Below, one piece after another: positions 24,928 to 49,808 of a DNA stretch of 64,000 bases. Made by a program: the position numbers and the translations under genes. The stretch is from positions 45,205 through 109,204 of the IMG/VR virus record IMGVR_UViG_3300027754_005987. One strand, given 5' to 3'. The first letter of the stretch is position 1, and each line of letters opens with the position of its first letter. This DNA comes from a virus. The notes under the pieces were generated by a model. That model worked only from the letters and a program-made list of their open reading frames with translations. It made no database searches and was not told the DNA's origin.

Positions 24928-25734
24928 TTATGCATTTTGTGAATCATACGTTATGTTTCTGTCTTTAGAAAAATAGTATTCTTTTTTAGCTTGAGCTAAC
25001 CACCATTTTGCTTCAGCTGGGTCTAATGATTCTTTATATTCTGAGAACAAAGAACCATTTCTTTGGTTAAGATGTTTATAACCAAATCTAGGGATAACAA
25101 AAACCTTAGCATCTTTGAATGTCATTCTTAATAAGAATTCATAAATGAATGTCAATTTGATACTAGATTTGAAACCACCAAATTCATTATACGTTGATTT
25201 ACGTATAACCATACCATCAGTATTAAAGTTTTGATAAGTTAATAAAGCATTATTATCTAACACACCTAATTCATCTGAAAAACTATTAGCCCAAACAGCT
25301 TCGTTAGTAAATCCAATAAAATTATTAGTTGAATCCACATCAATAATGATTGGCATGAAGATATCAACATTTGTATGCGCAGCTTTATATTCAACTACAT
25401 TTTTAAACCAAATTTTAGCATATTCATCATCAAATTCTAAAATAGAAAACCATTCTGATTTTGAAACATCAACACCATAATTAACTTGTGATGCGAAATC
25501 AGTATTGCCTTCATTTTCAGCAATAACAACTGAATCTTTATAATCACCATAATCATAACTTTTTACATATGTTGCCACATCACTATTTTTAGGCACAACG
25601 ATAACTAATTCATCTGGTCTAACAATTTGTTCAGTAACGCTCAATATTGCGTTTTCTAATAATTTTTTTGTTGTTTCGTCCAATGAATGCACTGGAAGTA
25701 TAACACTAATATTGTTTTTTTCTACTTTGCTCAT
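24928..25734 (-). CDS. Glycosyltransferase family 2
   Basis: ISVILPVH...SVTEQIVRPDELVIV...NYGV...SILEFDD. Confidence 0.85.
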   Translation of the reverse strand: MSKVEKNNISVILPVHSLDETTKKLLENAILSVTEQIVRPDELVIVVPKNSDVATYVKSYDYGDYKDSVVIAENEGNTDFASQVNYGVDVSKSEWFSILEFDDEYAKIWFKNVVEYKAAHTNVDIFMPIIIDVDSTNNFIGFTNEAVWANSFSDELGVLDNNALLTYQNFNTDGMVIRKSTYNEFGGFKSSIKLTFIYEFLLRMTFKDAKVFVIPRFGYKHLNQRNGSLFSEYKESLDPAEAKWWLAQAKKEYYFSKDRNITYDSQNA

Positions 25735-25765
25735 AATTTTTATGTGTTTTTTATTTTTTATTTAA

Positions 25766-26911
25766 TTAAGCGTTAGTTGATTCTACAACATTAGCTGATA
25801 AATTAGTTATTATGTTGTTTATTTCATTTTTTCTATTCTCAAAAAGACCATGATATACATTTTTAAGCGTTTCTTTTTGTTTTTCTGGAGTATAACCACC
25901 TTTACTTTCGGTCATTGAATTTTTTAAATCAGCAGGTACTGAATCTTCCAACCAAACTTTCATGTATGTTGCGATAAGTTCTGGAATATTGATAGTTGTG
26001 TTTGTCCAAACACCATTATTTTTAATAACTGTATTTCCTTTTTCATCTTTAGTTTCCATCCATTCTGGTACCATGTTAGGTATTTTACCAATAACAGGTG
26101 TGTTACTTTCAATTGCTTCTAATGGGAATGTTCCAAAACCAGATTGGTCATCAACCCAGATAGCCAAACATGCTTTTCCTAATTCATTTGCAAAATTTTC
26201 TCTAGATAAACCTCTTAATTCTTTAAAGGTAACCCATTTGTAAATTGGATACTGTAAATAAAATGATTTAGCTATTTTAGCAGCCTCACCTTGATTTCTT
26301 GTGTGTATTGCAACCAATGGAATTTTTGGTTTTTCTGAATCTTTAAAATAAGTTGGGATAGATACTGGTACAACATGTGTATTAATTGATGGGAACAATG
26401 TTGATAGGTATTGGGCCTGTTTAACGCTAGTAGTGATTACATCATTAAATCCGTAATCAGTGTTCCATCTTTTACCAATAGGTAATAACTCTAATAAATA
26501 ATCATAACTTTGTGATAAAACAATTTTTTTACATGGGAAAGCTTTCACTTGGTCCATAATGTTAGAGAATATTTCAGGGATTATGATAAAATCAGCTGGT
26601 GAAATATTTAAATTTTGTGATTCAATAGATGCATGTGGCAATTTAGCATATTCATCACCTAACCAATCACCAACACCGTTTCCGTTTTCATCGCCTATTA
26701 ACTTATAATCATTTTTTTCATGCAAAATGGTAGCTTTATAACCTAACTCATTAAGTAATTTAACATGTTCATAAATATTAGCAATCCCAGCAGTTGGGTT
26801 TCCTTTTGTATCAAGCGTAAAAAAATATAGATTAAAATCTTTATTCGCTAATTTATCAAAAACAATTTTAGCTTGTGTCAATTGTTCTTCAATTTGTTTT
26901 GTTTGTTCCAT
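25766..26911 (-). CDS. Glycosyltransferase (GT-B/GT4-like)
   Basis: AGIANIYEHVKLLNELGY; FGTFPLEAIESNTPVIG. Confidence 0.75.
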   Translation of the reverse strand: MEQTKQIEEQLTQAKIVFDKLANKDFNLYFFTLDTKGNPTAGIANIYEHVKLLNELGYKATILHEKNDYKLIGDENGNGVGDWLGDEYAKLPHASIESQNLNISPADFIIIPEIFSNIMDQVKAFPCKKIVLSQSYDYLLELLPIGKRWNTDYGFNDVITTSVKQAQYLSTLFPSINTHVVPVSIPTYFKDSEKPKIPLVAIHTRNQGEAAKIAKSFYLQYPIYKWVTFKELRGLSRENFANELGKACLAIWVDDQSGFGTFPLEAIESNTPVIGKIPNMVPEWMETKDEKGNTVIKNNGVWTNTTINIPELIATYMKVWLEDSVPADLKNSMTESKGGYTPEKQKETLKNVYHGLFENRKNEINNIITNLSANVVESTNA

Positions 26912-26935: not shown

Positions 26936-27298
26936 TTATTTTTCATCCATTTCTTTTAATATCCCATAATTTAATAAGGTATTAAAAGCTAATTTATACG
27001 CCAATGGCGTTCTTTCTAAGGCCCTATCAGCGCCTAAAGTATCATCACTTTCTTCATTGTAATCAATCAACACTTCAAAACACATTCTTAGTAAATCGTA
27101 TTTTGTTGCATCAACTTCTCTACCTCTTTCAACATTAGTTTCAGTAACTTCTATATTTAGTATTTTACCTTCACTATCTAAATGTTTTGTAGTTGTAGTT
27201 TCAACAATTCTGTCACTGCTAACAGGTTCTTTTATTTTTATAGCATTTTCTAATGCGTCAATATCAAAAAAGTATATTGCTCCTCCGAATTCTATCAT
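26936..27298 (-). CDS. Hypothetical protein
   Basis: 120-aa ORF in the operon. Confidence 0.6.
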   Translation of the reverse strand: MIEFGGAIYFFDIDALENAIKIKEPVSSDRIVETTTTKHLDSEGKILNIEVTETNVERGREVDATKYDLLRMCFEVLIDYNEESDDTLGADRALERTPLAYKLAFNTLLNYGILKEMDEK

Positions 27299-27302
27299 AT
27301 AA

Positions 27303-27908
27303 TTAAATTTCTTCGTAAGTTGTTATTTTAGTATTAAGTATTTTATCTCTAAGTTCTTCATTTTTAATAAAATCTAATAATGAATCAATTTCGTAATCAG
27401 CAGGTGTGTTTGTATTGTATGATGACTTAACCTTTACACTAATTTTACCAGAAGGTTTTGCCTCTAGCGCCATTGGATTTGCTGTAATTAGAATATCTAA
27501 TCCATCCCATTTATCGGAATAGTTTTTAACAAATCTAACATTAGGTATTTTACACCCAATTTTAGATAAAAAGAAATATGTTGATGGTATTGCTTTATCG
27601 ACTTCTCTCGATACAAGCTCTAGTTGATGTTCACCAAAGTCTTCGGTGTCCATGATGAAATTATTTAAATGGTTACTTAAACCATCTGACATTTGGTCTG
27701 CATGACCAAAAATTTCAAGGGGTGCTTCTACGTAAAGAAACGTATTAAGTTTGTTTACATTATCAAACTTAAAAAAATCGAGTAAATTAAAGTTAGTAAC
27801 ATCACCTTCTTTTATATCAGTATCTCCGATATACTTTTCATATGTGTATGTAAACTGACCAACAAAATCTCGTAATACTTCGTTAATACTTATTCCAATT
27901 TTAGCCAT
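27303..27908 (-). CDS. HAD-fold 5'(3')-nucleotidase-like protein with a degenerate active site
   Basis: KIGISINEVLRDF in place of IGIDxDxVL; SYN motif near the C-terminus; start moved to ATG 27908. Confidence 0.55.
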   Translation of the reverse strand: MAKIGISINEVLRDFVGQFTYTYEKYIGDTDIKEGDVTNFNLLDFFKFDNVNKLNTFLYVEAPLEIFGHADQMSDGLSNHLNNFIMDTEDFGEHQLELVSREVDKAIPSTYFFLSKIGCKIPNVRFVKNYSDKWDGLDILITANPMALEAKPSGKISVKVKSSYNTNTPADYEIDSLLDFIKNEELRDKILNTKITTYEEI

Positions 27909-27960
27909 TTTTAATTTATTATAAACCAATTTAATGATTTATAACAAATAAGTAAAGCAA

Positions 27961-28824
27961 TTATTTAAATAATTGTAGAATTTTTTCAAATATTGTACGT
28001 TTTTTTGTTTCTTCTATTGTAAATTGTCTATAATTTTCTTTGTTTTTATTAATCTTCTCTTGTTCTAGTTTTTTATTTTCACTAATTTTATCAAACACAT
28101 CTTCAATTACTTTTATTAGTGGATGTCTTATGATATCATCTTTAGTAAATTCAACAATACCAATCTTATCAATATTTTTAAAGTTTGTTAATAAAAAGCT
28201 TAATGCGCTATCGTATTTGTTTTTAGCGTCTATTTGTTTGGTATCACCTAAAAAAACCATTTTAGAATTTTCACCTAATCTAGTCAATATTGTTCTTATA
28301 TTTTCGATTGATATATTTTGAACTTCATCAATAATAACGATAGCGTTATCAATGTTTACACCTCTAAGATAAGCTATTGGTAGGATTTCTATTTGGTTAG
28401 CGGTTTTTAATTTAGCAAATAATTCTTTACCTATTATTTTTTCAAAATTACCAGTAAAAGAATACATGAATGGCTCCATCTTTTCTTCCATGGTTCCCTT
28501 TAAAAAACCAATTTCTTCTGATTTAAGTGTTGTTACTGATTTAACTAGTACAATTTTTTTAATCAGGTCATTGTATTTTAATTCATGAAGTGCCTGTATA
28601 CAAGACAAAAATGTTTTTCCGCTACCAGCAGGTCCAGTACAAATTGTTACGTCACTGTTTTTTATTAATTGCGTTAGTTTTTTTTGGTTTTCATTCTTGT
28701 GTTTTATTTCAATCCTCATTTGGACCGTTAAATCAGTATTTATCTTTTGTTGGTCTGAAACACTTTCATCGCTTTTTTTAACTTTGGCTTTTGATGGTCT
28801 AGTTGTGGTTGTTTTTTTTATCAT
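27961..28824 (-). CDS. phoH: PhoH-family ATPase
   Basis: GPAGSGKT, EEIGFLKG, YLRG, IIDEVQN, LTRLGENSK, GDTKQID and DIIRHPLI motifs. Confidence 0.93.
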   Translation of the reverse strand: MIKKTTTTRPSKAKVKKSDESVSDQQKINTDLTVQMRIEIKHKNENQKKLTQLIKNSDVTICTGPAGSGKTFLSCIQALHELKYNDLIKKIVLVKSVTTLKSEEIGFLKGTMEEKMEPFMYSFTGNFEKIIGKELFAKLKTANQIEILPIAYLRGVNIDNAIVIIDEVQNISIENIRTILTRLGENSKMVFLGDTKQIDAKNKYDSALSFLLTNFKNIDKIGIVEFTKDDIIRHPLIKVIEDVFDKISENKKLEQEKINKNKENYRQFTIEETKKRTIFEKILQLFK

Positions 28825-28864: not shown

Positions 28865-29818
28865 TTATTTTTTAACTTTATCATCATATTTTTTATCCAA
28901 TACTTTAACTCTATACTCTTCTAATATTGACACCCCATTTGTTTCAATATCAGCACTAAATTTAATCACATAATGGCCATTAAACTCAACAATTTTTTCA
29001 AATTTTAAATTGTTATATTCGTATTCTAAAAAATCATTAACACCAATAGCTTTATATGTTATAAAACCAACTTTTTTAATATCTAGCATCGATGAACTAT
29101 TTGGATTAACTATGGCCTTTTTAACCTCGCTAATGAATAGTCTGGTTGTCCTAATAAACTCATCTGGATACATACTAACATAAAACTCTAAAAGTCTCTT
29201 AGAATCGCTTATTTTACGTATGTGTAATTTCTTTGTGTATTTTTCAAGTTCAAATTTAGGTAATGTTTCTCTTTCAATAATAATTGGCAATTCTGTTTTA
29301 TGAGATGCAAAATATTCGTTACCGCTAATTTCACCATGGCTTGCGCTTATGGCTTCACCAGCATCATTATAATTTATTTCAGCTTCATCTAATAATTTTA
29401 TATAATCATTGGCCATAGCATCACTACTACCAATAATTATTTCTGAATTATCAACAACCATTTCTAATATATAGTTATCTGATGGTTCTACATTTACCTT
29501 TTTTAACCCAGATTTATTGTCGGTTTTTTTTGTTTTTACAATAGGCATCCCATCATTGTCATAACCAATTATTTCTGAAGATGTATTTTGTGTTTCTTGT
29601 AAAATTTTATACATTCTCCACCGTAAATTTTCAACTTCTTGAGTAACAACAGCATTCTTTAAAGAATGCAATAATGTTGCAGCATCTTTTTCGTTAACTT
29701 TATTTATGTCAGATTCTAATTGTTCCCCTTTTTGGGAAAACGAATTTTTTTCAACATTTGCTAAGGCTAATGATAAGATAGCTATTTTTTGTTTAAACCA
29801 TTTTTTTAAATCAATCAT
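28865..29818 (-). CDS. Hypothetical protein
   Basis: 317-aa ORF overlapping the upstream GT17 gene. Confidence 0.6.
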   Translation of the reverse strand: MIDLKKWFKQKIAILSLALANVEKNSFSQKGEQLESDINKVNEKDAATLLHSLKNAVVTQEVENLRWRMYKILQETQNTSSEIIGYDNDGMPIVKTKKTDNKSGLKKVNVEPSDNYILEMVVDNSEIIIGSSDAMANDYIKLLDEAEINYNDAGEAISASHGEISGNEYFASHKTELPIIIERETLPKFELEKYTKKLHIRKISDSKRLLEFYVSMYPDEFIRTTRLFISEVKKAIVNPNSSSMLDIKKVGFITYKAIGVNDFLEYEYNNLKFEKIVEFNGHYVIKFSADIETNGVSILEEYRVKVLDKKYDDKVKK

Positions 29819-30669
29819 TTAATCATATGTTTATATTTTTCTAAATTATCCAATATGTATTTTGGATAAGTTTCGTCTATTTGAACTGGTGTTAATTGAC
29901 CTCTAAAAAATGGGTCGATATTATTATTAACATTATTATCTAAACTATTTAAAACATAACTATTAACTAAATCTCTAGCTGAATAAGATAATAATTTTGT
30001 TTTTATCATTTCGTTACCACCTTGAAAACTAAAATGCCACCCACCATTATCAATTTTATTACTTAAAGATTCATCACCTCTAACTTCATTAAATGATAAG
30101 TCTTTTATGTTTTTATATTTTGAAATTTTTGAACCGTACCAATCAGTTTGTTTTAATAGATTTATATAATAATAATAAGTTAATTGATTTAAAGAATATA
30201 TTGTATTATCAATTGATAACTCATTTATTTTTTCTAGCAACTTTGGATTTGGTATTTCGTCTGCATCAGATATGATAATTATATCATCATCAGAACATGA
30301 TATTAATGGTCTTCTAACACACTCTTTTTGAAAGAAATCTCTACCGTAATCTGGTTGTGTTGCTCTATTAAATCTATTAGTTTGTTTCACAACAAAATTA
30401 AATATGTCATTAAGTGTTTTGTCTTCACCATAATTTAAATTAATAAAATCACTAGGTGTGTCGTACACTTTATAATGTATTATTTTATCTAAAAATTTAG
30501 AATATCTTTCTTTATTTTCTTCAAAATAAAAAGGTTTTTCCTCACCAGAATGAGTAATACTAGATTCAACTATAACAAAATAATCAACATGTTCATATAA
30601 AACATTTAACCTAATTTCAAGTATCTCTAATTCATTAAAAAAATTAAAACAATCGTATATTTTTCCCAT
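29815..30669 (-). CDS. Glycosyltransferase family 17 (beta-1,4-GlcNAc transferase-like)
   Basis: IYDCFNFFNELEILEIRL, VDYFVIVES..THSG..KP, ISDADEIP and GWHFSF motifs. Confidence 0.88.
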   Translation of the reverse strand: MGKIYDCFNFFNELEILEIRLNVLYEHVDYFVIVESSITHSGEEKPFYFEENKERYSKFLDKIIHYKVYDTPSDFINLNYGEDKTLNDIFNFVVKQTNRFNRATQPDYGRDFFQKECVRRPLISCSDDDIIIISDADEIPNPKLLEKINELSIDNTIYSLNQLTYYYYINLLKQTDWYGSKISKYKNIKDLSFNEVRGDESLSNKIDNGGWHFSFQGGNEMIKTKLLSYSARDLVNSYVLNSLDNNVNNNIDPFFRGQLTPVQIDETYPKYILDNLEKYKHMIK

Positions 30670-31409
30670 TATAAAATTTTAAATATCAAATGACTTACAT
30701 CATTATTTAGTTTTTTGTTAATACCGAATATATTCCCACCAGTACCAGTTGGTGATATTGTGTTATCGATAAAATCAATTATGTTATTATCAAGTTTAAC
30801 TAAAGATTTATTAAAATCAATATTATGTATGTTATTATTTAAAATAACCCCAAGTAAACTAGGTTCAATCATTAAATAAAAATCAAAATTATCTAATAAA
30901 TCAACGTATTGTTTAATTCCACCACTATATTCAACTTGAATATATGACACCTTATTTTCAAATTTGATTGTATTAATACCACCATTTATTACATTATAAT
31001 CAAGTCCTTCTACGTCTATTTTAATAAAATCAATATTATTGATTTTATTATCTTTGACATATGTATCTAAAGTTCTTAATGAGTATCTTTCACCATAATC
31101 TATGGGTGGAACATACCAATGTGGTATAAATGATTGAGTATTACTATAATATACGCAATCATCAGAATTTTTATCCGATAACCCAAATTCATTTAAAATT
31201 AATTTGTTTTTTGGTAATAAGTTAATTTTATCTTTTATTGATGTTAGCGCATCGATAAATGGTTCAAATAAATGATATTCCACATTTTGTTTTATTTCAT
31301 AAAAATATAAATCATCACGACATCCAACATCAAACACTATTTTAAAATCTTTACTCATTCGTTTATAAATTTCCAATTCATTATTTGGAATTTCGCTATA
31401 TTCACCCAT
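30669..31409 (-). CDS. FkbM-family methyltransferase
   Basis: VFDVGC, FEP, GLSD and TLD...IDFIKIDVEG motifs. Confidence 0.85.
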   Translation of the reverse strand: MGEYSEIPNNELEIYKRMSKDFKIVFDVGCRDDLYFYEIKQNVEYHLFEPFIDALTSIKDKINLLPKNKLILNEFGLSDKNSDDCVYYSNTQSFIPHWYVPPIDYGERYSLRTLDTYVKDNKINNIDFIKIDVEGLDYNVINGGINTIKFENKVSYIQVEYSGGIKQYVDLLDNFDFYLMIEPSLLGVILNNNIHNIDFNKSLVKLDNNIIDFIDNTISPTGTGGNIFGINKKLNNDVSHLIFKIL

Positions 31410-31410
31410 A

Positions 31411-32322
31411 TTAAATTATATTTTTAATTCTATAATATTCATTAGCCTCATTTTTACATGTTTGATAATCAAATAAGTTACCTTCTCTATCCATATATGT
31501 AAAACACCTTGTATAAGCGTCACCTGTTGCCCAATACCCATCACTAACATTATGTCTGGCCCAATATTTTGGTGCGATAATTTTATTTACATTTATATTT
31601 AACCATGCTGCCCACCAACCAAATGTTGAATTTGATATAATTAACCATTTAGCTTGATTAACAACATAATAATCAAAACCAACATCAACATGTACCGCTT
31701 GAATAGGGAATGGCATAAAACTATTGGCGCATTGTACATCATCGGTAATTAATAAAAATCGCATATTAGGGTTTAAAGATAACATATGGTTAACAGCATC
31801 TCTCCAATATTCTCTTCGTAACAAAACATTTGGGATGTTACGATACTCTCCACCTCTAAAGTTAATAACACATAAATTATCATCTAAAGTAACACCCATT
31901 TCAGATAATAAATTATCATAAACTATTTTAGATTCTTCTTTTATCTCAAACCATTTTTTTATATCTTCTTTTCTATCGATAATATAGTCTTCTGACTGAT
32001 ATATACCACCTTTAGCTCCATTATGACCTAACATAATAGTATTATCACCAATACTATATAAAGACTCATTTAACATTGTTATATTAACTTCATCAACATG
32101 GCGAATTGTTTTCCACAGTTCATGAAATTCAGTTGTTATGTTTTTAACCTCTTTACCAAAATCAACATTCATAAACGTCATTTGGCTTTGTCCGTTAAAA
32201 TAATCGTGACTAGGATTTGGGTTAATACCCCATTCGTAACCTATTTTTTCTGCAATAGTTCTGCATACGGCATATTGCCACATATGGTTACCTAGATTTC
32301 CCGTTAAGTTAGTACTAATCAA
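31411..32322 (-). CDS. Glycosyltransferase family 11 (alpha-1,2-fucosyltransferase-like)
   Basis: GNLGNHMWQYA, YQSEDY, INFRGGEY and NSTFGWWAAWL motifs. Confidence 0.85.
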   Translation of the reverse strand: MISTNLTGNLGNHMWQYAVCRTIAEKIGYEWGINPNPSHDYFNGQSQMTFMNVDFGKEVKNITTEFHELWKTIRHVDEVNITMLNESLYSIGDNTIMLGHNGAKGGIYQSEDYIIDRKEDIKKWFEIKEESKIVYDNLLSEMGVTLDDNLCVINFRGGEYRNIPNVLLRREYWRDAVNHMLSLNPNMRFLLITDDVQCANSFMPFPIQAVHVDVGFDYYVVNQAKWLIISNSTFGWWAAWLNINVNKIIAPKYWARHNVSDGYWATGDAYTRCFTYMDREGNLFDYQTCKNEANEYYRIKNII

Positions 32323-32756
32323 TTGTTTAAGTATTTAATTGCTTCTGATAGCAAATCTTTATTGTCTTTAAATCTTCCTAAACCATTGTTACAACTAAGG
32401 CATAATAAACCTCTTACTTTGCCAGTTTCATGATTATGGTCTACAGCTAAAGCTCTATCAAATTCAGTTTGATGCCTGTGGCAAATAGCACAAGATTCAT
32501 TTTGTTTTTCTAATAGTTTGTTATAATCTTCAAAAGTTATATCAAAATCACGTACTAAGTTTAAATGTTTAACTCTATCTTTATTAGCCTCATGCCAAGC
32601 TTTGCTTTTTGCGTTAATATGATTTTTATTATTTTTATAATAATTTTTTCTTTGTTCTGGATTAGCAGTTTTCCAAGCAACAATTCTAGCGTCTATTTTA
32701 TCTTTATTTGCTTTACGATATTCCTTATCATAAATAGATTTTTCTTCTTTTGTCAT
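32319..32756 (-). CDS. Endonuclease VII-family (homing-type) nuclease
   Basis: CAICH...LAVDHNHETGKVRGLLCLSCNNGLG.F.D. Confidence 0.85.
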   Translation of the reverse strand: MTKEEKSIYDKEYRKANKDKIDARIVAWKTANPEQRKNYYKNNKNHINAKSKAWHEANKDRVKHLNLVRDFDITFEDYNKLLEKQNESCAICHRHQTEFDRALAVDHNHETGKVRGLLCLSCNNGLGRFKDNKDLLSEAIKYLNN

Positions 32757-32834: not shown

Positions 32835-33641
32835 TTATAACGCTATATTTCGATAATTTTCTAATGTGTTAGTCGTATCTAAGAATTGTCTTTGAGGAGC
32901 AAAAGCATAATGACTAAATAAAGATTTACCAAAAATAATATTAGTTGTGTTTAATTCTTTAGGTTTATCAACAGATAACCAATTTTCTTCAGAAATACCT
33001 ACTTCACCGTTAAACGTTTTAAATGTTTTACCTAACCATGAAATACTATTAATAGAACACCTTTCAAAATATTTCAATTCCCAATTGTCAATAAAAAAAT
33101 CACTTATTTTATTTTCAGTCATTTTTTCAAAAAAGTAATTATGTAATGAGAAACAAAAATCTGGGTTTCTCCATCCATTTTCATCTAAACAATCATAATT
33201 AACTGATGGTAAGTTTTTTATAATACCTTTTCTTTGGTATATGTTAGTAACAATTGCATTATTTAATATATTACCATAAACTAAAAAATATTGTTCATTT
33301 GCTAACCTAAAGTCGAATAAATCCTTTATTGAGTTTTTATTAATATATACTATATCGTCATCTAATCTCAAATATACTGAATTTTCGTCAATACATTTTT
33401 TAAAAAAATTACAGATAGTTGCTGTGTGGCTTCCATTTGGGTCAATAGGTATTTCAGAATACTGTAGTTCTATATAGTCATAATCTTTAACTAGATTTTC
33501 AATATAATTAATGTCTTCATCATTAGTGGTGTTAACCCAAATTACCCATTTATCAAATTCATCTTTACATTTATATAAATTCTTATGTAATATTTCAAGG
33601 TATCTTTTCCTACCTGCTGGTGTTACTATTATTTTTTTCAT
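32835..33641 (-). CDS. Putative GT-A-fold glycosyltransferase
   Basis: VTPAGRKRYL; YLRLDDDIVYI (DxD); located in the glycan cluster. Confidence 0.55.
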   Translation of the reverse strand: MKKIIVTPAGRKRYLEILHKNLYKCKDEFDKWVIWVNTTNDEDINYIENLVKDYDYIELQYSEIPIDPNGSHTATICNFFKKCIDENSVYLRLDDDIVYINKNSIKDLFDFRLANEQYFLVYGNILNNAIVTNIYQRKGIIKNLPSVNYDCLDENGWRNPDFCFSLHNYFFEKMTENKISDFFIDNWELKYFERCSINSISWLGKTFKTFNGEVGISEENWLSVDKPKELNTTNIIFGKSLFSHYAFAPQRQFLDTTNTLENYRNIAL

Positions 33642-35665: not shown

Positions 35666-35673
35666 ATTTTTTT

Positions 35674-36360: not shown

Positions 36361-36418
36361 ATTAATTTTATATTTATTATAACTTATAATTTAATAAAAT
36401 AAGTTAAAAAGTAAACTA

Positions 36419-40504: not shown

Positions 40505-40521
40505 GTGTAAATAATTTTAAA

Positions 40522-41324: not shown

Positions 41325-42046
41325 TATCTAATTAATTTTTTATAAGGTGTTTTATTTCGTATTCTTACTGCATGGTTAGTAACCATAGACATATCTACTT
41401 TATGCTCATTTATTGGATTTTCAGCATTATAAACATAATTAACTTCAGTCATAAACCTATAATGTTCATCACCAGACATTTCTAACATAGGATACATAAA
41501 ACATAAATCACCACTCCATTGCCAGTAATCGCCATTCTCATCTTTTAAATCTTCTTCTTTTATATTTCGCCATAGGAAAGCCCTCCACGTTCTAATATGT
41601 GAAGCAGTAAAATTAACAGCTCTTAAATTATCAAAATTTGTTTGTTTTGACGAAAAACCTATTGCACCACCATGGTATCTGAAACTACCATTGGCAATCC
41701 AAACATTATCATCACTATATAAATCATTTATTCTTTTGAATACGTTTGAATCAGGTAAATAATCGTCACCATCAACTTCTATTAAAATTTCATTGTCTAG
41801 TATGTTTGAGTTATATCTTATAACTTTATCAAAATTACCAGCTTGGTATAGTTTTTTTTCGTTGTCATCTATCAAAATAAATCTATCGTCACCTTTAATC
41901 ATTTCTTTAACTAAAGAAACAGAATTATCTGTTGATAAATCATGTGTTATATAACAAGTAAAATCTTTAAATGTTTGACCCATTATTGAACCTAGGCATC
42001 TTTCAATATAATTTTCAGCATTATAAAATCCAGTTAAAATTACCAT
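41324..42046 (-). CDS. Glycosyltransferase family 2
   Basis: YNAENYIERCL.SI..Q, DLSTDNS and VDGDD motifs. Confidence 0.88.
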   Translation of the reverse strand: MVILTGFYNAENYIERCLGSIMGQTFKDFTCYITHDLSTDNSVSLVKEMIKGDDRFILIDDNEKKLYQAGNFDKVIRYNSNILDNEILIEVDGDDYLPDSNVFKRINDLYSDDNVWIANGSFRYHGGAIGFSSKQTNFDNLRAVNFTASHIRTWRAFLWRNIKEEDLKDENGDYWQWSGDLCFMYPMLEMSGDEHYRFMTEVNYVYNAENPINEHKVDMSMVTNHAVRIRNKTPYKKLIR

Positions 42047-42047
42047 A

Positions 42048-42731
42048 TTAATTATTTATATATTTTTTTATTATTTTATTTGTATACCCATTAGTTTTAA
42101 TATCTAAATTAGATATACTTTCATCAACTATTTCACTATTTTTAACGAGCCAATTATTATCGTTTTCATTAACAACAATCTTTATCGTTGATTCTTTATT
42201 TAAATGATTCGATATAATAGTAACCAAATCAAAAACACTTATTTTTTCAACATCAGATATGTTAATAACACTAGAATTAACTTTATCTTTGCAATAATTT
42301 ACTATATTGATTAAATCATCTATATCTAATAATGCTCGTTTAACGTTTTCAAATATAGTTATTTCATCATCTTTTAATATTGCGTTTTTTAAAAAATTAA
42401 CCAAATTGTTTTTATTACCATTTCTACCAATAATTTGTGGTACTCTAAAAATAATATAATTATTTGATTTATCTTTAATTATATTCTCAATTTCAAGTTT
42501 ATGGTTGTAATAATCATTATTTGATATGTCAGCTAATATACTGCTAAAATATATGAATTTTAATTCTTTGTTTTCAACTAATGTTTTTAAAACTAATTCT
42601 TTTTCTCTATTAAACTCATTTTGATTAGTTTGTTTTGAGTCTGAAACACCAGAAGCAAAGATAATAAAATCATCATAATTAATATCAGAATCTATAAATA
42701 CAGACGCTAATAAACCATTACCTATAATCAT
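42048..42731 (-). CDS. NAD-dependent epimerase/dehydratase-like protein
   Basis: IIGNGLLA, FASGVSDS, YFSS and YYNHK (YxxxK) motifs. Confidence 0.75.
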   Translation of the reverse strand: MIIGNGLLASVFIDSDINYDDFIIFASGVSDSKQTNQNEFNREKELVLKTLVENKELKFIYFSSILADISNNDYYNHKLEIENIIKDKSNNYIIFRVPQIIGRNGNKNNLVNFLKNAILKDDEITIFENVKRALLDIDDLINIVNYCKDKVNSSVINISDVEKISVFDLVTIISNHLNKESTIKIVVNENDNNWLVKNSEIVDESISNLDIKTNGYTNKIIKKYINN

Positions 42732-43478
42732 TTATTTTAATACTTTTAATCTTTTACTAACATATAATTTATAATCAGTAATTATTTCATCAACACTAAA
42801 TAAATAATATAACCCAAAACCATTTTGTTTATTAAAACCACTTAATCTTTCAGCTCTAATTTTGTTTTTATAAATGTAATCATCTAACCCTAAAAATTTA
42901 TAATGTAACATTTTTAGAGAAGTATCAGTTGACAATCTAACATCACCAGTTGGGTTTGCATTATGACATCCAAAACCATAATTTATTTCATCAATTTTAT
43001 TACAATCAAACATCATCATTTTATCCAAAACTGGTGTTCTAACGCCTTCTTTAACTTTTTCAAGTATATTATCATCAGCTAATAAATTTAAATCCTCATC
43101 ACCAATCATATGATGACCTTCTGGCTTAAATATTGTTACACCATTATTAAACGATTCCTTTAAAAAAGTAATCATATCCTCATGATATAAAAACTCATCA
43201 GTATCGCCAAGTATAACATAATCAGCCTCACCAATACTAGTTTTCCATATGCTGTTTTTTATATTGATATGCACACCATCATGAAATTCACTATTAGAAC
43301 CAAATGTAATAACTTCAGTATTATCAAATGAATTAACTATTTCAACACTATTATCGGTTGATTTATTATCCAATATTGTTATCTTTTCACAAAAGGTTGA
43401 ATAGTACTTTATTAAATGAGGCAATATGTTTTCCTCATTATAGCATAAAAAATATGCATGTATTATAGGTTTTTTCAT
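42732..43478 (-). CDS. Glycosyltransferase family 2-like
   Basis: CYNEENIL, DNKSTDNS, GDTDEFL, GCH and LHYK motifs. Confidence 0.8.
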   Translation of the reverse strand: MKKPIIHAYFLCYNEENILPHLIKYYSTFCEKITILDNKSTDNSVEIVNSFDNTEVITFGSNSEFHDGVHINIKNSIWKTSIGEADYVILGDTDEFLYHEDMITFLKESFNNGVTIFKPEGHHMIGDEDLNLLADDNILEKVKEGVRTPVLDKMMMFDCNKIDEINYGFGCHNANPTGDVRLSTDTSLKMLHYKFLGLDDYIYKNKIRAERLSGFNKQNGFGLYYLFSVDEIITDYKLYVSKRLKVLK

Positions 43479-44266
43479 TATAAATTTAATAGTTTAATCC
43501 ACTCTTTAATTATTTCATCATTAGATAATTCTTTTACATCATGGTCAGTAGCTGAATTTCCGTAAAATTTTGTACCAGTAGTTTCACACTCATCTTTAAC
43601 CAAAGAAGCAACTTCACTTTTAGATGATAAGAACACAGCACCTACCATATCATAAACTTTTTGTTTATCACTTTCAAAACCATACTCAATAACATTATCA
43701 CTTATTAAAGGTTTAACAAATTTATTATAGTAATTTGGGTCACTAACATTACCAAATAATATAACTTTTTCATACCCTTCACTAAAAGCTCTTTGTATTG
43801 ATACGTGAGTCTGTTTATTTTCATCAAAAGAACCGATTACACCAGCTATTTTTTCATTCTCAGGTGTTTTATCCTTTTTAATTAAAACCTCTCTTAAATT
43901 AGGTATAATGGAGTATTTTCCATTATAACTAGAATGATAATCTCTTTGTTTTTCATTTAAGAAAACAACTTCATCCCAAAATTGTTTTATTTTACCAACT
44001 TCAAAAACATCTTTTTCATGGCATGATAAAATAACCTGTTTAGCGTTAGGTTTATTTGGTAATTGAATAAAATGACAAATTAAAGTATCATCATTATTTA
44101 TAGTTAATGTTTCATCTAACATTCCAGATTTACATTTATCTAAATGCCAAGTATGTGGCCCATAAAATGTTGTTTCAATACCAGCTTTATTTAAGGCATT
44201 GGTCAAATTTATAAAAGCAAATGTTGACCCCCCTTTATTACTCCAACCAGAAATTATCTTAATCAT
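43478..44266 (-). CDS. Glycosyltransferase (GT-B/GT4-like)
   Basis: KGGST.AFINL.N.L...G, IIPN, NKQTH and SKSEVASLV..E motifs. Confidence 0.7.
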   Translation of the reverse strand: MIKIISGWSNKGGSTFAFINLTNALNKAGIETTFYGPHTWHLDKCKSGMLDETLTINNDDTLICHFIQLPNKPNAKQVILSCHEKDVFEVGKIKQFWDEVVFLNEKQRDYHSSYNGKYSIIPNLREVLIKKDKTPENEKIAGVIGSFDENKQTHVSIQRAFSEGYEKVILFGNVSDPNYYNKFVKPLISDNVIEYGFESDKQKVYDMVGAVFLSSKSEVASLVKDECETTGTKFYGNSATDHDVKELSNDEIIKEWIKLLNL

Positions 44267-45450
44267 TATAGTGTTTCAATATATTGGTTAACAATGTTAT
44301 TAATATCTAATTTTTTTATCGCATCAATATCACCACTTAATTCAATAACTGACGATAATGGGTTTTCTTGAACACTAGTAAACAATCCATTTGTGAATTT
44401 GGTATTAACAATAGAAATACCATTGTATAGTTTATTCATATGTTCAATAATACCATCATCATATACATGGATGATATCAAAGTTATAATCTTTCACTTTA
44501 TAAAGCATGTTTGGTTGTGATGGAACATCACCATCTTTAGTTTTAAGAACCCATTTACCATCACCTAATGCAAATCCTGGAGGTTGCTGTATTGGCGCTA
44601 AATTAATACCGTTATTTTTAGCAATTGAACCTATCTTTCCATTTATGTTAGAACAAATAGTAACATCATGGTTTTCTTTTTTTAATTTTGATGCAATTTC
44701 TAACATTATATTACTTTTAGGTAAGGTATCATCAAAAGATAAACTAGTCATTAGTATTTTTAATTTTTCACCCTTTCTTAAGGTTTTTTTAATTTTTACT
44801 GGTAGGTTTTCTTTAAATGTTTCAGCGAAAATAATTCTATTTTTATCCCATGATTCATTTGTCATACCTATTGATTTATGGTTAACCCTAACAATTGTCG
44901 ACACACCTATTTTAACACCTTTTAAATAATTCTCAAAACAAAAAGTAACATCATAAAAATGAAAACCTTCTACTGATTCGTTAAAATTAGTTTTAAGTCT
45001 AGTTTTATCAACAGCAAAGAAAACACCATCAACAATCACAACTTCTTCTAATCCAAGACCTAAATCATCAGAATAAGCTGATAACCATGACTTACCTTCA
45101 TGTGTATGTTTTACTCTACCATACATTTTTCTTTTATCTTCCCACCATTGTCCGCTGCTAGCCATATATTTTGTACCAGCAACACCAATAACACCATATT
45201 CTGGATTTTTTTCAAACTGTTTTATCAATTTATTACCCCATTGTTTTGTTTCAATATTTAAATCATCATGACAAAACACAACGATGTTGTTTTTAGCCTG
45301 TTTTAACCCCTTATTATATGATTTTGTTAAGCTTTCACCATTATTGATAATCTCAATAACTTCAATATGTTTGTGAAGACCAGAAGACTTTATTAAGTGC
45401 TCTTTATGTTCTGGATTTGTTTTTCTAGTACAATATACAACTGTTATCAT
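44266..45450 (-). CDS. Glycosyltransferase (GT2-like) with an extra C-terminal GT-B-like N-domain
   Basis: SLTKSYNKG, VFCHDD, GVAG, DGVF and FHFYD motifs, followed by KILMTSL...HDVTI. Confidence 0.8.
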   Translation of the reverse strand: MITVVYCTRKTNPEHKEHLIKSSGLHKHIEVIEIINNGESLTKSYNKGLKQAKNNIVVFCHDDLNIETKQWGNKLIKQFEKNPEYGVIGVAGTKYMASSGQWWEDKRKMYGRVKHTHEGKSWLSAYSDDLGLGLEEVVIVDGVFFAVDKTRLKTNFNESVEGFHFYDVTFCFENYLKGVKIGVSTIVRVNHKSIGMTNESWDKNRIIFAETFKENLPVKIKKTLRKGEKLKILMTSLSFDDTLPKSNIMLEIASKLKKENHDVTICSNINGKIGSIAKNNGINLAPIQQPPGFALGDGKWVLKTKDGDVPSQPNMLYKVKDYNFDIIHVYDDGIIEHMNKLYNGISIVNTKFTNGLFTSVQENPLSSVIELSGDIDAIKKLDINNIVNQYIETL

Positions 45451-45556: not shown

Positions 45557-46132
45557 TTATTGTATTCCAGTGCTACCAAAACCACCAGAACCACGTTCTG
45601 TATCGGTGTTTATGTTATTAACTCTATTTAAATTTATTAGATTTTTGCCAGTCACTGAAGAAATAACCGCTTGTGCTATTCTATCACCATTGTTTATGGT
45701 AAAATCTTCTTTACCATGGTTAATCAATAAAACACCAATTTCCCCAGTATAGTCACTGTCTATGGTTCCAATTCCATTAAGCACACAAACACCGTGTTTA
45801 TACGCTAAACCGCTTCTACTTCTAACTTGTATCTCAAAATTATCTGGAATATTAAAATACAGTCCAGTTTTTATTAACATATATTCACCAGATTTTATCA
45901 CCAAAGTTTCAGTTAAATTAGCTCTCAAATCAAAACCAGAAGAACCAGCTGTGGCATATTCTGGGTCTGGATTATTAGATTCATTAACAAAGTCAAAGTT
46001 AAATTTATATTGATTATCATCCAATGAATAATCTTTATTAAATTCTTCAATAAAATCTTCTTGTGAATAACCGCTATCTGGGTCAAGTATTAATAGAGCT
46101 TTAGCTCTCATTTCATCTAAATTTATTTTCAT
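45557..46132 (-). CDS. dut: Trimeric dUTPase
   Basis: All five motifs present: GFDL, RSG, GTIDSDYTG, RIAQ, RGSGGFGSTG. Confidence 0.95.
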   Translation of the reverse strand: MKINLDEMRAKALLILDPDSGYSQEDFIEEFNKDYSLDDNQYKFNFDFVNESNNPDPEYATAGSSGFDLRANLTETLVIKSGEYMLIKTGLYFNIPDNFEIQVRSRSGLAYKHGVCVLNGIGTIDSDYTGEIGVLLINHGKEDFTINNGDRIAQAVISSVTGKNLINLNRVNNINTDTERGSGGFGSTGIQ

Positions 46133-46698
46133 TATTTATTTTTTCCTTCTTGACTTTTTATTGCTAAAACACTACCCATTTTTAATAATTGACCAATCAT
46201 TGAATTATGGAATTCAGACATCTTATCATCCGTCTTATCAAAATTCAAAATAGCAACATATTCTTCTTCAGTTAAACTAATCCCATGAGTTGTAAGATAA
46301 TAAACACTTCTTTCACTAACACGCATAGATATTAAATCATTATTGAATTCATACATCTTACCTTGATTTTTACGATGCCATTCTGATTCACATGGTTTGT
46401 ATAGTTTAGCTTTACCTATTTGATGTAACAAACATACTTTAACCAATGAATTTTGGTCAACTTTTTCATCTTCAGGTAATGATTTATTAATCAATACTGC
46501 ATATTTAGCAACATTAAGCAAATGCTCAATAAGCCCACCTTCAAAAGCATTATGAAAATCAGCCATATTAGTAGCTGGTGCTTTGATGAAATCTTCACCT
46601 AAAAAGGTTGTTAGTTCATCATTCATGAAACCTAGTTTTGTTGCAGTATCAAAATACTTTTTAGTATTCGATACAATTCTTTCTTTGTCTAAACTCAT
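46132..46698 (-). CDS. HD-domain protein with HD changed to HQ
   Basis: APA...HNAFEGGLIEH...LLHQIGK. Confidence 0.65.
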   Translation of the reverse strand: MSLDKERIVSNTKKYFDTATKLGFMNDELTTFLGEDFIKAPATNMADFHNAFEGGLIEHLLNVAKYAVLINKSLPEDEKVDQNSLVKVCLLHQIGKAKLYKPCESEWHRKNQGKMYEFNNDLISMRVSERSVYYLTTHGISLTEEEYVAILNFDKTDDKMSEFHNSMIGQLLKMGSVLAIKSQEGKNK

Positions 46699-46726
46699 TG
46701 TAATTTATTTATAAGCGTTATTTTTA

Positions 46727-46757
46727 CAAATATACTACTTATTTTTCGAAGATTCAA
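46727..46757 (-). promoter_or_regulatory. Bacteroidota-type promoter TTG-N20-TATATTTG
   Basis: caaatata at 46727-46734 and caa at 46755-46757. Confidence 0.6.
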
Positions 46758-47397
46758 TGTTTTTCATAAAAGAATTAAATTTTTCTGCACCAACCATAGC
46801 ATCTAAGTTTAGAATACCTTTGATAGATACCTCTTTCACATAGGTTTCCAAGTCATCTTGTGTTGTCTCATAAAAAACAGAACTAGTCATTGGTCTTTCT
46901 TGTTTGTTTTTAGGTATGATGATACCTTGTTTAGCATCAAGCATTTTCTTTTGGTAGTTAAGTGCTTCAGTTGCGTTATCACGGTCTTTGTTTATAACAT
47001 ATGTTAACGTTGGGTTGTTTGGATTAAGATTTTCATTATGAATTTCAATAATCTCTGGCTCATATAACATTGGTGTTTTGTTATTGAAAAGCATTTCACG
47101 TCTGTTAGCCAACAAGTCTTTTGTTAAGTTTTCATGGTTTGTTTGTTCCAATGATGTTGTATACATAAGCTTTGTAACTTTTGCGTGATTGGCGAATCCT
47201 TGACTAAAAGCATCTTTTTCCCTTTTGATTTCATCCAATCTAGCTTTTTCTTCTTTACGAACTAAATTAGGTTTAGTAACCTTTCTATACCAAAGACTTG
47301 CTATAGGGTTTTTTACATACTTAAACCATACTGTACTAGCAAGTGATTTAATCTTGCTAGCAACTGATAGTTTATTTTTCTTTACTGTTTTTTTCAT
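46735..47397 (-). CDS. Hypothetical basic protein
   Basis: 220-aa ORF overlapping the upstream gene by 4 nt. Confidence 0.55.
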   Translation of the reverse strand: MKKTVKKNKLSVASKIKSLASTVWFKYVKNPIASLWYRKVTKPNLVRKEEKARLDEIKREKDAFSQGFANHAKVTKLMYTTSLEQTNHENLTKDLLANRREMLFNNKTPMLYEPEIIEIHNENLNPNNPTLTYVINKDRDNATEALNYQKKMLDAKQGIIIPKNKQERPMTSSVFYETTQDDLETYVKEVSIKGILNLDAMVGAEKFNSFMKNIESSKNK

Positions 47398-49808
47398 GTG
47401 TTTGTTGTTTCTATTAAAACTTCATTATTATTAACTTGGTTATCTTCAACTAATTTAATGTATAATGCTCTTCTGTTTTCTGTTACTTTATCCATTGAAT
47501 ACGTATCTTTAACAGTTGCAAAAAGATTATCTTGAAGGGTCTTAACCAAATCAGGGTTTGTAATTAATTTCTTGATAGCGCTATACCAATCTTTATGGTT
47601 TTTACTGCTTTCAACTAAAATACCATTAGCCTCTAAATCAAAACCACCACCAAATTTAATTGCGTTTTTAATGTCTATTTTATATGGACCAAAATCTTGA
47701 GCAATAATCGCTTTATGATGAAAACCAGCTTCAATAACTTTTAATTGACTTTTTACCTTGTTGAATATGTTTTCTTCGATAGGTGCCAATGAAATATCAA
47801 ATAGATTATAGTTAGAAGCATACGTTGAAATTGGTTTTGTCCAAACACGTCTATAAGATTCATTAGAAACATTAGGATATTCTTCTTGTCTAAATTTAAG
47901 TAAAAAATCTTTATATTCTGGACTAACAGATTTATAATCATCAGTAAATATCCTTTCATATTGATACCAAACGCTTTCCATTGGTTTGATAGCTCTTTGT
48001 GTTTGATTACCAGTTTTTTCATCAATCATAGTCATAGTACCTCTTAAGTCAAAACCACATAAAACAAATTGTACTTTATCAATTAAGTTATCACTTTTTA
48101 AACGACTAACAATACCATTTAGAATCTCTAAATCTTTTAAATGTGAATTACCAATCCACATAGCTTTACCGTTTCTTCTAACATAAATAATGTGATTTTT
48201 AACTTCAACACAATAAACATTACCCTTATAATGTCTATTATATTGGTCTTCTGTTTTTATTAGCGGTGTATTTTTATTATGTTTACTAATATTAGGGTGT
48301 TTAGTAAAATTAACAACTAAAGAATCATATTGATTATTAATGGCTCTACCTTTAATTTCAGAAGTTCGTTTACCTCTGTTTGTTATAGTAGCAGAAACAC
48401 CTATTTTTAACGCAATTTCTTGTAAATCATTTGCTAATGAAGGTGAGCAAGTAAATGCTCTAGTCCTAGTATATTTATTATTTTCAACATGTCCATCACC
48501 TTTAATAAACCAATCTAAAAATATAGTTAATTGTCTTGGTGATAAACCTAATACGTCTTTAGGTACAAATTTTTCATAAGCATCACCAAAGTTAGATAAA
48601 TACTCCCATAACTGTTTATCAAAAACCCTAATTTGGTGTTTATCTTTTGTATATTTTGGATTGAAACCCATTTTAATTAATAAATCATACATATATGATA
48701 AATAACCATTATCTTTTACTTGGGCAATACCTACTTGATGTAACTCCTTTGTTTTACTAACCCAACCTTCAGCCATCCAGAAACCAAAAAATTCTAACCA
48801 ATTATCCATATCAATAAATTTATCCGAACCATATTTTTCAGATAACCCATTATATCGTTTTTTTGAAATTAATTTGTCAACATAGCTTTCATTTTCTTCA
48901 TGTTCAGCATATTCATTTAACATAGGTAAAACAAAATATTTTTCTTCTTTACCAACCCAAATAGCATCTTTTTTAATATGGAAATTTTTACCATGTACTT
49001 TTTCAGATTGAATTAATTCTAAATTTAATTTTTTATGTGTTAATGATTTAGCAACTGAAGCATACATATTATGGTTTGGTGTAACTTCATATTCAACTAA
49101 ACCATTTTTAGCACAGTTTAATTCACCCTCAAATGGTTCACATATATAACCAGTTGGTTCATGATATTCTATCGCATTTGTTAATGGATTTAATGTCGCA
49201 ACAGTTTCAGTTTGATTTAACTTATCAAATCGTTTCCAACCTTCATTAGTCAAAATCTCAGTATCTGGTGTCATACAAGAACCACCTAGCCATCCAATTC
49301 TAACACGACCATTTGATGGTTCTAAGTTTGGTGTGAATTGTTTTTCTGTTGGGTCAATAGCGTTAGGTAAAACATATACGTTTTTATTATACTTTGAAAT
49401 TTCACTTGCAAATATATCAGTTGTTGTTGTAATATTTTCAGCAACTTTTAAATTTGCCAATATTTTCTCATCTAATTTAGCATTTTTAATCAAATGATAT
49501 GCTGGATGATGTGGTCCAGGTGCCCAATGGTCATCTAAATCCATTATGGAAATAATACCTAAATTTTTAAAATAATTAACAAGTGATTCCATTTGTTCAT
49601 ATTGACCAAGTGTTCTGTGATAATGTATAATATCATATTGTTTTAAAAATTCTACATTATTTAAATCTGGTTCGTAATCAACATCAACATGAAACTCATC
49701 TGGGTAATTATTTTCTAACGCTAAATGTGGGTTAGTTGAGCGATAATAACCAACACCTGTACGGTCTGATGGTACAACTAAAACTTTTATTTTTTTTCTT
49801 TTTTCCAT
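47394..49808 (-). CDS. GT-B-fold glycosyltransferase containing an intein
   Basis: GVGYYRS..P, DLDDHW, VLPNAID, RIGWLGGS|SHLKDL and DISLAPI...FNKVKSQLKVIEAG motifs. Confidence 0.85.
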   Translation of the reverse strand: MEKRKKIKVLVVPSDRTGVGYYRSTNPHLALENNYPDEFHVDVDYEPDLNNVEFLKQYDIIHYHRTLGQYEQMESLVNYFKNLGIISIMDLDDHWAPGPHHPAYHLIKNAKLDEKILANLKVAENITTTTDIFASEISKYNKNVYVLPNAIDPTEKQFTPNLEPSNGRVRIGWLGGSCMTPDTEILTNEGWKRFDKLNQTETVATLNPLTNAIEYHEPTGYICEPFEGELNCAKNGLVEYEVTPNHNMYASVAKSLTHKKLNLELIQSEKVHGKNFHIKKDAIWVGKEEKYFVLPMLNEYAEHEENESYVDKLISKKRYNGLSEKYGSDKFIDMDNWLEFFGFWMAEGWVSKTKELHQVGIAQVKDNGYLSYMYDLLIKMGFNPKYTKDKHQIRVFDKQLWEYLSNFGDAYEKFVPKDVLGLSPRQLTIFLDWFIKGDGHVENNKYTRTRAFTCSPSLANDLQEIALKIGVSATITNRGKRTSEIKGRAINNQYDSLVVNFTKHPNISKHNKNTPLIKTEDQYNRHYKGNVYCVEVKNHIIYVRRNGKAMWIGNSHLKDLEILNGIVSRLKSDNLIDKVQFVLCGFDLRGTMTMIDEKTGNQTQRAIKPMESVWYQYERIFTDDYKSVSPEYKDFLLKFRQEEYPNVSNESYRRVWTKPISTYASNYNLFDISLAPIEENIFNKVKSQLKVIEAGFHHKAIIAQDFGPYKIDIKNAIKFGGGFDLEANGILVESSKNHKDWYSAIKKLITNPDLVKTLQDNLFATVKDTYSMDKVTENRRALYIKLVEDNQVNNNEVLIETTNT
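48147..49277 (-). mobile_element. Intein (377 aa) with a LAGLIDADG homing endonuclease
   Basis: Starts CMTPDTEILTNEGW, block B VTPNHNM, FFGFWMAEG and FIKGDG motifs, ends VYCVEV..H...VRRNGKAMWIGN followed by Ser. Confidence 0.92.

Follow-up and report, generated by a model that had tools for sequence, protein, structure and literature searches.

A glycosyltransferase locus with a fixed core and an exchangeable cassette in T4-like jumbo phages, and the possible acceptors of its glycan

Hypervariable islands rich in glycosyltransferase (GT) genes are already known in pelagimyophages and cyanomyophages, and in aquatic myophages and jumbo phages GT-rich islands of this sort count among the largest blocks of genes still without an explanation. 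A role at the host surface has been assumed for them for twenty years without tests. Which molecule receives the sugars is the question raised by a block of about 25 kb (positions 24928 to 49808) in the 64,000-nucleotide stretch analyzed here, hereafter the window, which covers positions 45,205 to 109,204 of the IMG/VR virus record IMGVR_UViG_3300027754_005987. The block joins four core GTs, present throughout the genomes compared, to a cassette of GT and sugar-enzyme genes that is replaced between close relatives. Our leading, tentative answer is that the glycan would be completed in the cytoplasm and end up on virion proteins of the phage itself, either the fibres or the head surface.

A block with fixed ends and an exchangeable cassette

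The window makes up the final 64 kb of one viral contig of 109,204 bp, which carries no terminal repeat. T4-type virion genes lie at 8582-16622 (Pfam Portal_T4, E = 6e-73; Gp23, E = 4e-73), and a gp55-like late sigma factor is encoded beside the block, its start abutting the stop codon of the core GT2-family gene GT2a. The Gp23 protein reaches at most 33 to 42% identity to that of any deposited phage. With the gp55-like protein as query, IMG/VR yielded 244 related loci, and two relatives rated complete by CheckV measure 362,018 and 368,549 bp. Taken with the completeness rating of the contig itself (32%), these loci and complete relatives imply a genome of about 360 kb and place the contig in an uncultured, large, mostly freshwater family of T4-like jumbo phages. 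Gene-by-gene comparison covered nine genomes, namely the contig (G000) and eight extended relatives.

All 29 open reading frames (ORFs) of the block are on the minus strand, and the one-strand, GT-rich content reported by the initial annotation is confirmed. Its count of about 14 GT or GT-like genes was fair, with 12 supported by profile or fold and four weak candidates (the genes at 34715, 36419 and 43478 and the DUF3431 protein, with weak or no GT matches). The GT2, GT17, DUF5672, DUF3431, Glf, RfbH-like, RmlD-like and FkbM proteins and the two GT11 enzymes that it named all match Pfam families above the cut-off; of its three GT-B enzymes, only two are supported (u381 and an intein-split GT-B). 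Five enzymes are of GT2 type by Pfam, comprising GT2 at 24928, 37826 and 41324, Glyco_tranf_2_4 at 42732 and Glyco_tranf_2_5 at 44266. Genes outside glycan synthesis, which the initial annotation did not mention, are scattered among them (PhoH, an endonuclease VII gene, an HD protein, dUTPase, and four or five proteins without a family). The block had been placed between head/baseplate genes and fibre genes; the head genes (portal and Gp23) and the fibre gene (52391-55999) are as described, and the baseplate part of the claim found no support, the genes between gp23 and gp55 having given no match.

Gene order was constant in 9/9 genomes. It runs from the fibre gene, on the opposite strand, through five small conserved genes, a GT-B with or without an intein, a small ORF, the HD gene and dUTPase to the Glyco_tranf_2_5 GT, and then through the variable cassette to PhoH, two proteins of no known family, u381, GT2a and gp55. 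The ends of the block (the four core GTs, PhoH, dUTPase and HD) are thus fixed in every genome, and the cassette between them holds 6 to 22 genes. The four core GTs are GT2a (24928-25734; Pfam Glycos_transf_2, E = 8e-9; in 80/80 related loci at about 75% identity), u381 (25766-26911; GT-B fold), the Glyco_tranf_2_5 enzyme (44266-45450; Pfam E = 1e-33), which is the first gene of the cassette operon, and the virus-type, intein-split GT-B (47394-49808; phrog_7162 GT, E = 3e-37; LAGLIDADG_3 domain). All nine genomes encode these four together with u317 (28865-29818), a 317-amino-acid (aa) cassette protein whose position varies. The core GTs are about 72 to 78% identical from genome to genome, as well conserved as gp55, and a marine relative with about 50% identity keeps the order u381-GT2a-gp55. 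All GT2 matches in the complete relatives fall within this single block.

The cassette behaves differently from its flanks. Pfam annotation of 98 cassette ORFs, drawn from seven relatives, gave GT2 16 times, FkbM six times and GDP-mannose 4,6-dehydratase five times, along with GT4, GT10, GT11, GT25, UDP-GlcNAc 2-epimerase and NTP-transferases. Two relatives, G005 and G009, are 97% identical over eight flanking proteins and have only 4/14 cassette genes in common, which is a cassette replacement of the kind seen in bacterial O-antigen loci. Such fast exchange suggests that the product is exposed to selection from outside; this fits attachment to the virion and attachment to the host surface alike, and does not separate them.

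Possible acceptors of the glycan

The initial annotation had reported no Wzx/Wzy system, no initiating phosphoglycosyl transferase and no membrane-anchored GT, and had suggested a comparison with related jumbo phages. These absences hold. Searches of eight genomes (the contig and relatives, two of them complete) found no Bac_transf, no Glycos_transf_4/WecA-type enzyme, no Polysacc_synt (Wzx), no Wzy_C/ligase and no ABC-2 exporter, and the control genomes gave matches; the complete relatives therefore hold no flippase or polymerase elsewhere in the genome. The block proteins are soluble, as hydropathy finds no transmembrane (TM) segment in any block ORF. An apparent membrane-anchored GT2 upstream (genome positions 21180-21914) was rejected, its hydrophobic N terminus being an artefact of a GTG-extended ORF whose true start reads KLSIIIPC.

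Because enzymes for lipid priming, flipping, polymerization and export are missing, as is a route to a hydroxylated base (see below), we infer a glycan finished in the cytoplasm and most likely carried by virion proteins. As predicted from its gene content, the locus would assemble this glycan in two tiers. The fixed tier (GT2a, u381, Glyco_tranf_2_5 and the virus-type GT-B) may prime and start the glycan on an acceptor that all members of the family share, and the exchangeable tier would then add a strain-specific outer part. In this contig the cassette contributes about 8 to 12 further GTs, Glf, an E1-type 3-dehydrase with RmlD-like reductases, two GT11 enzymes and FkbM, so that the predicted outer glycan would include galactofuranose (Galf), a 3,6-dideoxyhexose, GT11-type linkages and O-methyl groups. 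Cassette swapping would turn such a coat into phage 'serotypes'.

Two further observations favour virion proteins as the acceptor. One is the position of the block between the head and fibre genes. The other is the predicted structure of u381 (AlphaFold pLDDT 83), for which the best Foldseek match is 8xsg (Foldseek E = 3e-13, TM-score 0.63 to 0.70, profile-PDB E = 9e-9, 20% identity), followed by GtfA, BshA and SdgB. Its structural relatives thus include Agt/AmGGT, GtfA and SdgB, enzymes that act on proteins in the cytoplasm, where they start glycans or lengthen them (PMC12159676), and the resemblance is suggestive.

A serious rival, on balance unlikely in our judgement, is remodelling of the host envelope. 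The soluble phage GTs would build a repeat unit on the undecaprenyl-PP primer of the host, and host Wzx/Wzy/WaaL or an ABC transporter would export it, thereby changing the surface of the infected cell so that competitors cannot superinfect it or progeny do not adsorb to debris. This is how the clusters of pelagimyophages and of cyanophages P-SSM2 and S-SCSM2R were read, without tests (PMC7029224, PMC1079782, PMC12801897). The GT families and sugar pathways of the block are those of O-antigen loci, and the swapping of a cassette between conserved flanks mirrors these loci too. Against this stands the lack of any initiating, flipping, polymerizing, ligating or exporting component in the eight genomes searched. 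The four core GTs are also shared by family members that are about 70% or about 50% identical and probably infect different hosts, an awkward fit with a host-specific primer, and the location of the block, in the structural region and next to the fibre genes, is a further objection. An integrase was found in one of the two complete relatives and none is conserved across the family, which makes a stable converted state unlikely; lysogeny was accordingly rejected as support for host conversion.

The timing of expression bears on the same choice, and our statements on promoters and timing are motif-based throughout. The motif ATATTTATA is found at about 20 genes across the contig, most of them structural, some 20 nt ahead of the start codon (sites include window positions 5821, 10651, 13452, 28844, 52350 and 52367), and it precedes the terminase-like, protease-like, scaffold-like and fibre genes as well as PhoH. 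Two related 8-mers, ATATTTAT and TATTTATA, are enriched about 7-fold upstream of genes. ATATTTATA may be a late promoter recognized by the gp55-like sigma factor. A MotA-box-like promoter, 'TTGCTTTAC', was dropped, as it occurred only twice near gene starts. Within the block ATATTTATA precedes PhoH only and is absent before the two main GT operons, that of the GT-B and that of the cassette, both of which follow terminator-like hairpins and carry sigma70-like hexamers; one such hairpin, with a T8 run, lies in the 106-nt gap upstream of the Glyco_tranf_2_5 gene. Given the missing motif, the hairpins and the sigma70-like boxes, late timing of the GT operons cannot be claimed, and these non-late upstream regions would allow early GT expression, a point in favour of host remodelling.

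Further points weigh against virion attachment alongside this promoter pattern, and the step that the initial annotation took from missing exporters to assembling virion proteins as the acceptor is supported in part only. Profile searches of the eight genomes found no GT41/NGT, GT-D or BAHT, and GT60 gave no match in them either, although its control was silent; GT9 is sporadic, with one gene, in G003 only. The fibre proteins contain 24 to 29% Ser plus Thr (the mean is 12.9%), a level common in fibres, and mucin-like Pro/Thr acceptor tracts were not found. The fold of u381 also resembles small-molecule and lipid GT4 enzymes (BshA, PimA and MshA). The contig represents 32% of its genome, and absences in the remaining 68% are deduced from the relatives. 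GT2, GT11, GT25 and GT10 are families typical of O-antigen synthesis. The GTs that act on lipid-linked O-antigen intermediates are also soluble, normally without TM segments, and the machinery of the host could be borrowed. Finally, equivalent islands have been published as agents of host-surface change (PMC7029224, PMC1079782).

Hypermodification of DNA is very improbable. Here the GTs would glycosylate a hydroxylated base in the style of T4, RB69/DLP3, RL38JI or the MT/TET-GT systems, with the GT-B/HD/dUTPase operon as the core. That operon does join a GT-B to two nucleotide-metabolism genes in a conserved arrangement, GT-B enzymes and even Glf serve DNA glycans in other phages, and known DNA glycans reach three sugars. 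The sole Thymidylat_synt homologue, encoded just upstream of the window, is nevertheless a canonical ThyA, 50 to 60% similar to bacterial ThyA and with L143, D169 and N177 kept. Residues at these positions distinguish synthases of hydroxymethylcytosine (hmC), hydroxymethyluracil (hmU) and 5-hydroxycytosine (5hoC) (PMC13326640), N177D or D169N being the changes expected of a hydroxylated-base synthase, so retention of all three argues that the enzyme is not an hmC or 5hoC synthase. A single intact thymidylate-synthase-family copy is present in the complete relative G006, no DNA C5-methylase was found in the contig or the two complete relatives, and the dUTPase passes the dut equivalog (171 bits against a cut-off of 103) and is not a dCTPase. 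The initial annotation's statement that the window has no base hydroxymethylase is borne out by these results. A Tet_JBP search gave no match, its positive control being silent too. A set of at least twelve GTs, accompanied by methyltransferases and deoxysugar pathways, also goes far beyond any known DNA glycan. On the ThyA residues, the copy number and the missing C5-methylase, with the Tet_JBP result qualified as above, DNA glycosylation was largely rejected.

A further alternative, which we think improbable, is some other cytoplasmic product: a free or carrier-bound oligosaccharide, or glycosylated host proteins, non-virion phage proteins or small molecules that serve in takeover or as decoys. 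AmGGT, the closest solved relative of u381, prefers free oligosaccharide acceptors, and several close folds (BshA, MshA and tetrahydrobiopterin GTs) act on small molecules; the conserved non-GT protein u317 could moreover be a dedicated carrier. The rapid exchange of cassettes between near-identical phages points instead to a product selected from outside, and we know of no precedent for so large a phage locus with an internal product.

Relation to known systems

A close parallel by position and content is the hypervariable 'host recognition cluster' of pelagimyophages and cyanomyophages, which lies beside the fibre genes and carries many GTs (Zaragoza-Solas et al. 2020, PMC7029224). Both cases are large, non-syntenic islands beside tail-fibre genes of aquatic T4-like myophages, rich in GT and deoxysugar genes. 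The present lineage differs in being distant and much larger (about 360 kb), and its GTs form a block of their own, with four family-wide core GTs, apart from the fibre genes. The pelagimyophage cluster is defined as lying between VrlC and gp14 (PMC7029224), two landmarks that were not identified here, where conserved neighbour genes have no family or PDB match.

Cyanophages offer a similar comparison, with 24 'LPS' (lipopolysaccharide) genes in P-SSM2 (PMC1079782) and 13 GTs in S-SCSM2R (PMC12801897). The clusters of P-SSM2, S-SCSM1 and S-SCSM2R share with this block NDP-sugar epimerases and reductases and a large number of GTs, GT2, GT11, GT10 and GT25 among them (PMC1079782, PMC12801897); these too are lytic T4-like phages with no exporter reported, and the comparison is one of gene content. 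Additional here are Glf, the E1 3-dehydrase, the intein-bearing GT-B and cassette exchange between 97%-identical genomes. What the present family usefully adds to such islands is a core of GTs found family-wide, cassette swapping that is documented, relatives with complete genomes and no export genes, and a GT that contains an intein.

Bacterial O-antigen loci of the Wzx/Wzy or ABC type have in common with the block a swappable cassette of GT and NDP-sugar genes between conserved flanks, as well as Glf, RfbH and GT11; they differ in that no phosphoglycosyl transferase, Wzx, Wzy, ligase or ABC-2 transporter was found here. Phage DNA glycosylation clusters (T4 hmC, RB69/DLP3 5hoC-arabinose, RL38JI and MT/TET-GT; PMC13326640, bioRxiv 10.1101/2023.12.21.572611) also set a GT-B next to nucleotide-metabolism genes, and RL38JI has Glf as well, whereas in this block no modified-base synthase was found, ThyA is canonical, no C5-methylase was found and GTs are far more numerous. 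From the Actinobacillus NGT/Agt pathway of N-glycosylation, u381 is a candidate for the Agt-like GT-B (20% identity to 8xsg) and the HMW1C-like NGT (GT41) was not found.

Glycosylation of virion proteins by phage enzymes has itself been established. In mycobacteriophages, virion O-glycosylation is reported by Freeman et al. (2023, Cell Host Microbe, as cited in PMC12619734); as described there, soluble phage GTs are encoded near structural genes, as they are here, and a cytoplasmic glycan on virion proteins would be a further likeness if our leading reading is true. According to that source, these phages use one to a few GTs, with glycans demonstrated on the C termini of capsid and tail-tube proteins, and the present comparison sets against them 12 or more predicted GTs with sugar pathways. 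Virus-encoded glycosylation is likewise established in chloroviruses and mimiviruses (PMC9614988, PMC5408694). Giant viruses resemble the block in having cytoplasmic virus-encoded GTs, sugar-nucleotide enzymes of their own and O-methyltransferases; they infect eukaryotic hosts, and the one enzyme link is a protein-atlas lead for u316. Chlorovirus capsid glycans are rich in fucose and deoxysugars and have a conserved core with a variable outer part.

The broadest claim, that a widespread freshwater and marine family of about 360-kb phages coats its virions with a complex O-antigen-like glycan whose outer part is switched by cassette exchange, seems to us possible and somewhat speculative. If it is true, phage serotypes would be a viral counterpart of bacterial O-antigen diversity, tuning adsorption or hiding the particle. 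A glycan on the virion would mean that abundant environmental phages, and not only a few mycobacteriophages and giant viruses, glycosylate proteins with enzymes of their own, and phage diversity and host range would gain a new dimension; a glycan on the host surface would confirm a long-standing hypothesis. With complete genomes that lack export genes, core GTs that can be expressed, and cassette variants in near-identical backgrounds, the family is a clean test case.

Genes of the block, inteins and outlying relatives

Between u381 and the cassette lie two conserved proteins of 120 and 208 aa (26936-27929; no family match; in 9/9 genomes) and a PhoH-like ATPase that forms the fixed cassette boundary (27961-28824; Pfam PhoH, E = 7e-60; ATATTTATA 20 nt before its ATG). 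The core protein u381 has no homologue among cultured phage records; its distant relatives comprise 968 representatives, and a viral contig scan with one of these gave no match. For u317 the model is of moderate confidence (pLDDT 68) with no fold match at E <= 0.001, and the protein was rejected as a GT; it could be a glycan carrier, an acceptor or an assembly factor.

The first part of the cassette (29815-32322) consists of a GT17-like GT (from 29815; Pfam E = 2e-23), an FkbM methyltransferase (from 30669; E = 5e-12) and a GT11 of the fucosyltransferase family (from 31411; E = 3e-10), and is found in few relatives. Next to it, an Endonuclease VII-domain gene (32319-32756; Pfam Endonuclease_7, E = 1e-26) is absent from 8/8 compared relatives and is a possible mobile or homing element. 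There follow u268, a probable GT (32835-33641; phrog_4447 glycosyltransferase, E = 1e-5; weak Galactosyl_T, E = 0.03), and Glf, the UDP-galactopyranose mutase that yields UDP-Galf (33610-34725; Pfam GLF, E = 3e-72; NCBIfam equivalog 385 bits against a cut-off of 304). The stretch 34715-37180 encodes u316, the DUF3431 protein (from 35674; E = 3e-10) and u253 (from 36419), of which u316 and u253 have weak matches; the atlas neighbours of u316 are viral proteins, some of them from giant viruses. A DUF5672 protein (from 37186; Pfam E = 1e-19) and GT2b (from 37826; Pfam GT2, E = 5e-10) form a pair at 37186-38530.

The deoxysugar genes are paired at 38532-40504, a short RmlD-like NAD(P) reductase (from 38532; RmlD_sub_bind, E = 6e-21) preceding a putative E1/RfbH-type NDP-4-keto-6-deoxyhexose 3-dehydrase of the 3,6-dideoxyhexose branch (from 39203; DegT, E = 1e-71). 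The latter gives a full-length alignment with 3bcx, an E1 3-dehydrase (E = 8e-73), and keeps the His-for-Lys motif SFYPAHHI and the Cys cluster, and it scores below the NCBIfam RfbH equivalog cut-off (354 against 423 bits). RfbF, RfbG and E3, which act in the upstream dideoxyhexose steps, were not seen in the contig, so either the host or the missing 68% of the genome must supply these steps. The region of this gene (39119-40505) is 79% identical in DNA to part of LR756502.1, a 642-kb 'uncultured phage' record, a match far closer than that of the rest of the window to any phage record, which suggests gene exchange among large aquatic phages.

The last cassette group (40560-44266) comprises a second GT11 (from 40560; Pfam), GT2c (from 41324; Pfam), a weak RmlD-like protein (from 42048), a Glyco_tranf_2_4 GT (from 42732; Pfam) and u262, which has a weak, Pfam-level GT1-like match (from 43478). 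The gene at 42048 had been called an epimerase, a name not upheld by its sub-threshold RmlD-like match (E = 0.0017). Transitive HMM searches within the collected loci gave u268, u316, u253, u262, DUF3431 and DUF5672 no link to known GTs. Beyond the core Glyco_tranf_2_5 gene lie dUTPase, the HD-domain protein (HD, E = 1e-4) and a 220-aa ORF (45557-47397); the first two are conserved across the compared genomes, and the 220-aa ORF matched 0/8 relatives. The GT-B extein falls into atlas clusters that are about 100% viral and GT1-like, and its homologues, only 23 to 26% identical, belong to uncharacterized GT clusters of Phapecoctavirus/Justusliebigvirus. PDB profile searches with the extein and with the neighbours u468 and u503 gave no match.

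The GT-B intein is a 375-aa LAGLIDADG element at about 48153-49277 (minus strand), inserted exactly at GWLGGS/SH. Intein-free homologues of 408 to 423 aa match residues 4-177 and 553-798 of the split protein. The intein is present in G000, G005 and G003, and five relatives read GWLGGSSH uninterrupted; in G003 the GT-B ORF extends to 1153 aa and possibly holds two inteins. An intein in a GT is unusual and suggests that the gene is important to the phage. A LAGLIDADG intein also lies next to the catalytic Cys region of the thymidylate synthase (genome positions 42044-44362; L003:6044-8359), just upstream of the window, and its endonuclease is 26% identical to that of the GT-B intein (E = 4e-9). 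At 5842-8289, a further intein-bearing gene encodes an 815-aa head-region protein that has an Intein_splicing domain. Near gp23 are an EndoVII-like gene (16719-17408) and an HNH endonuclease gene (17974-18465); these two and the cassette gene at 32319-32756 are likely homing endonucleases, which could promote cassette exchange.

The major capsid protein (14784-16622) is 612 aa long, with the Gp23 profile matching best over residues 332-599; its tblastn matches fall in two pieces, and it may hold extra N-terminal or inserted material. The IMG/VR label 'provirus' for the contig looks doubtful, as no integrase was found in it and the relatives are 360-kb linear genomes. Two outlying loci keep the order u120-u381-GT2a-gp55. 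One, at about 50% identity, is on a contig of Prochlorococcus sp. AG-409-L21 (L094), a marine single-cell assembly, and is a host lead only, not evidence. The other, at about 70% identity, is on a contig of a 'Methanobacterium' metagenome-assembled genome from peat (palsa; L093), an archaeal assignment that is probably due to mis-binning, and it also holds the DUF3431, GT11 and GT17 genes of the cassette described here.

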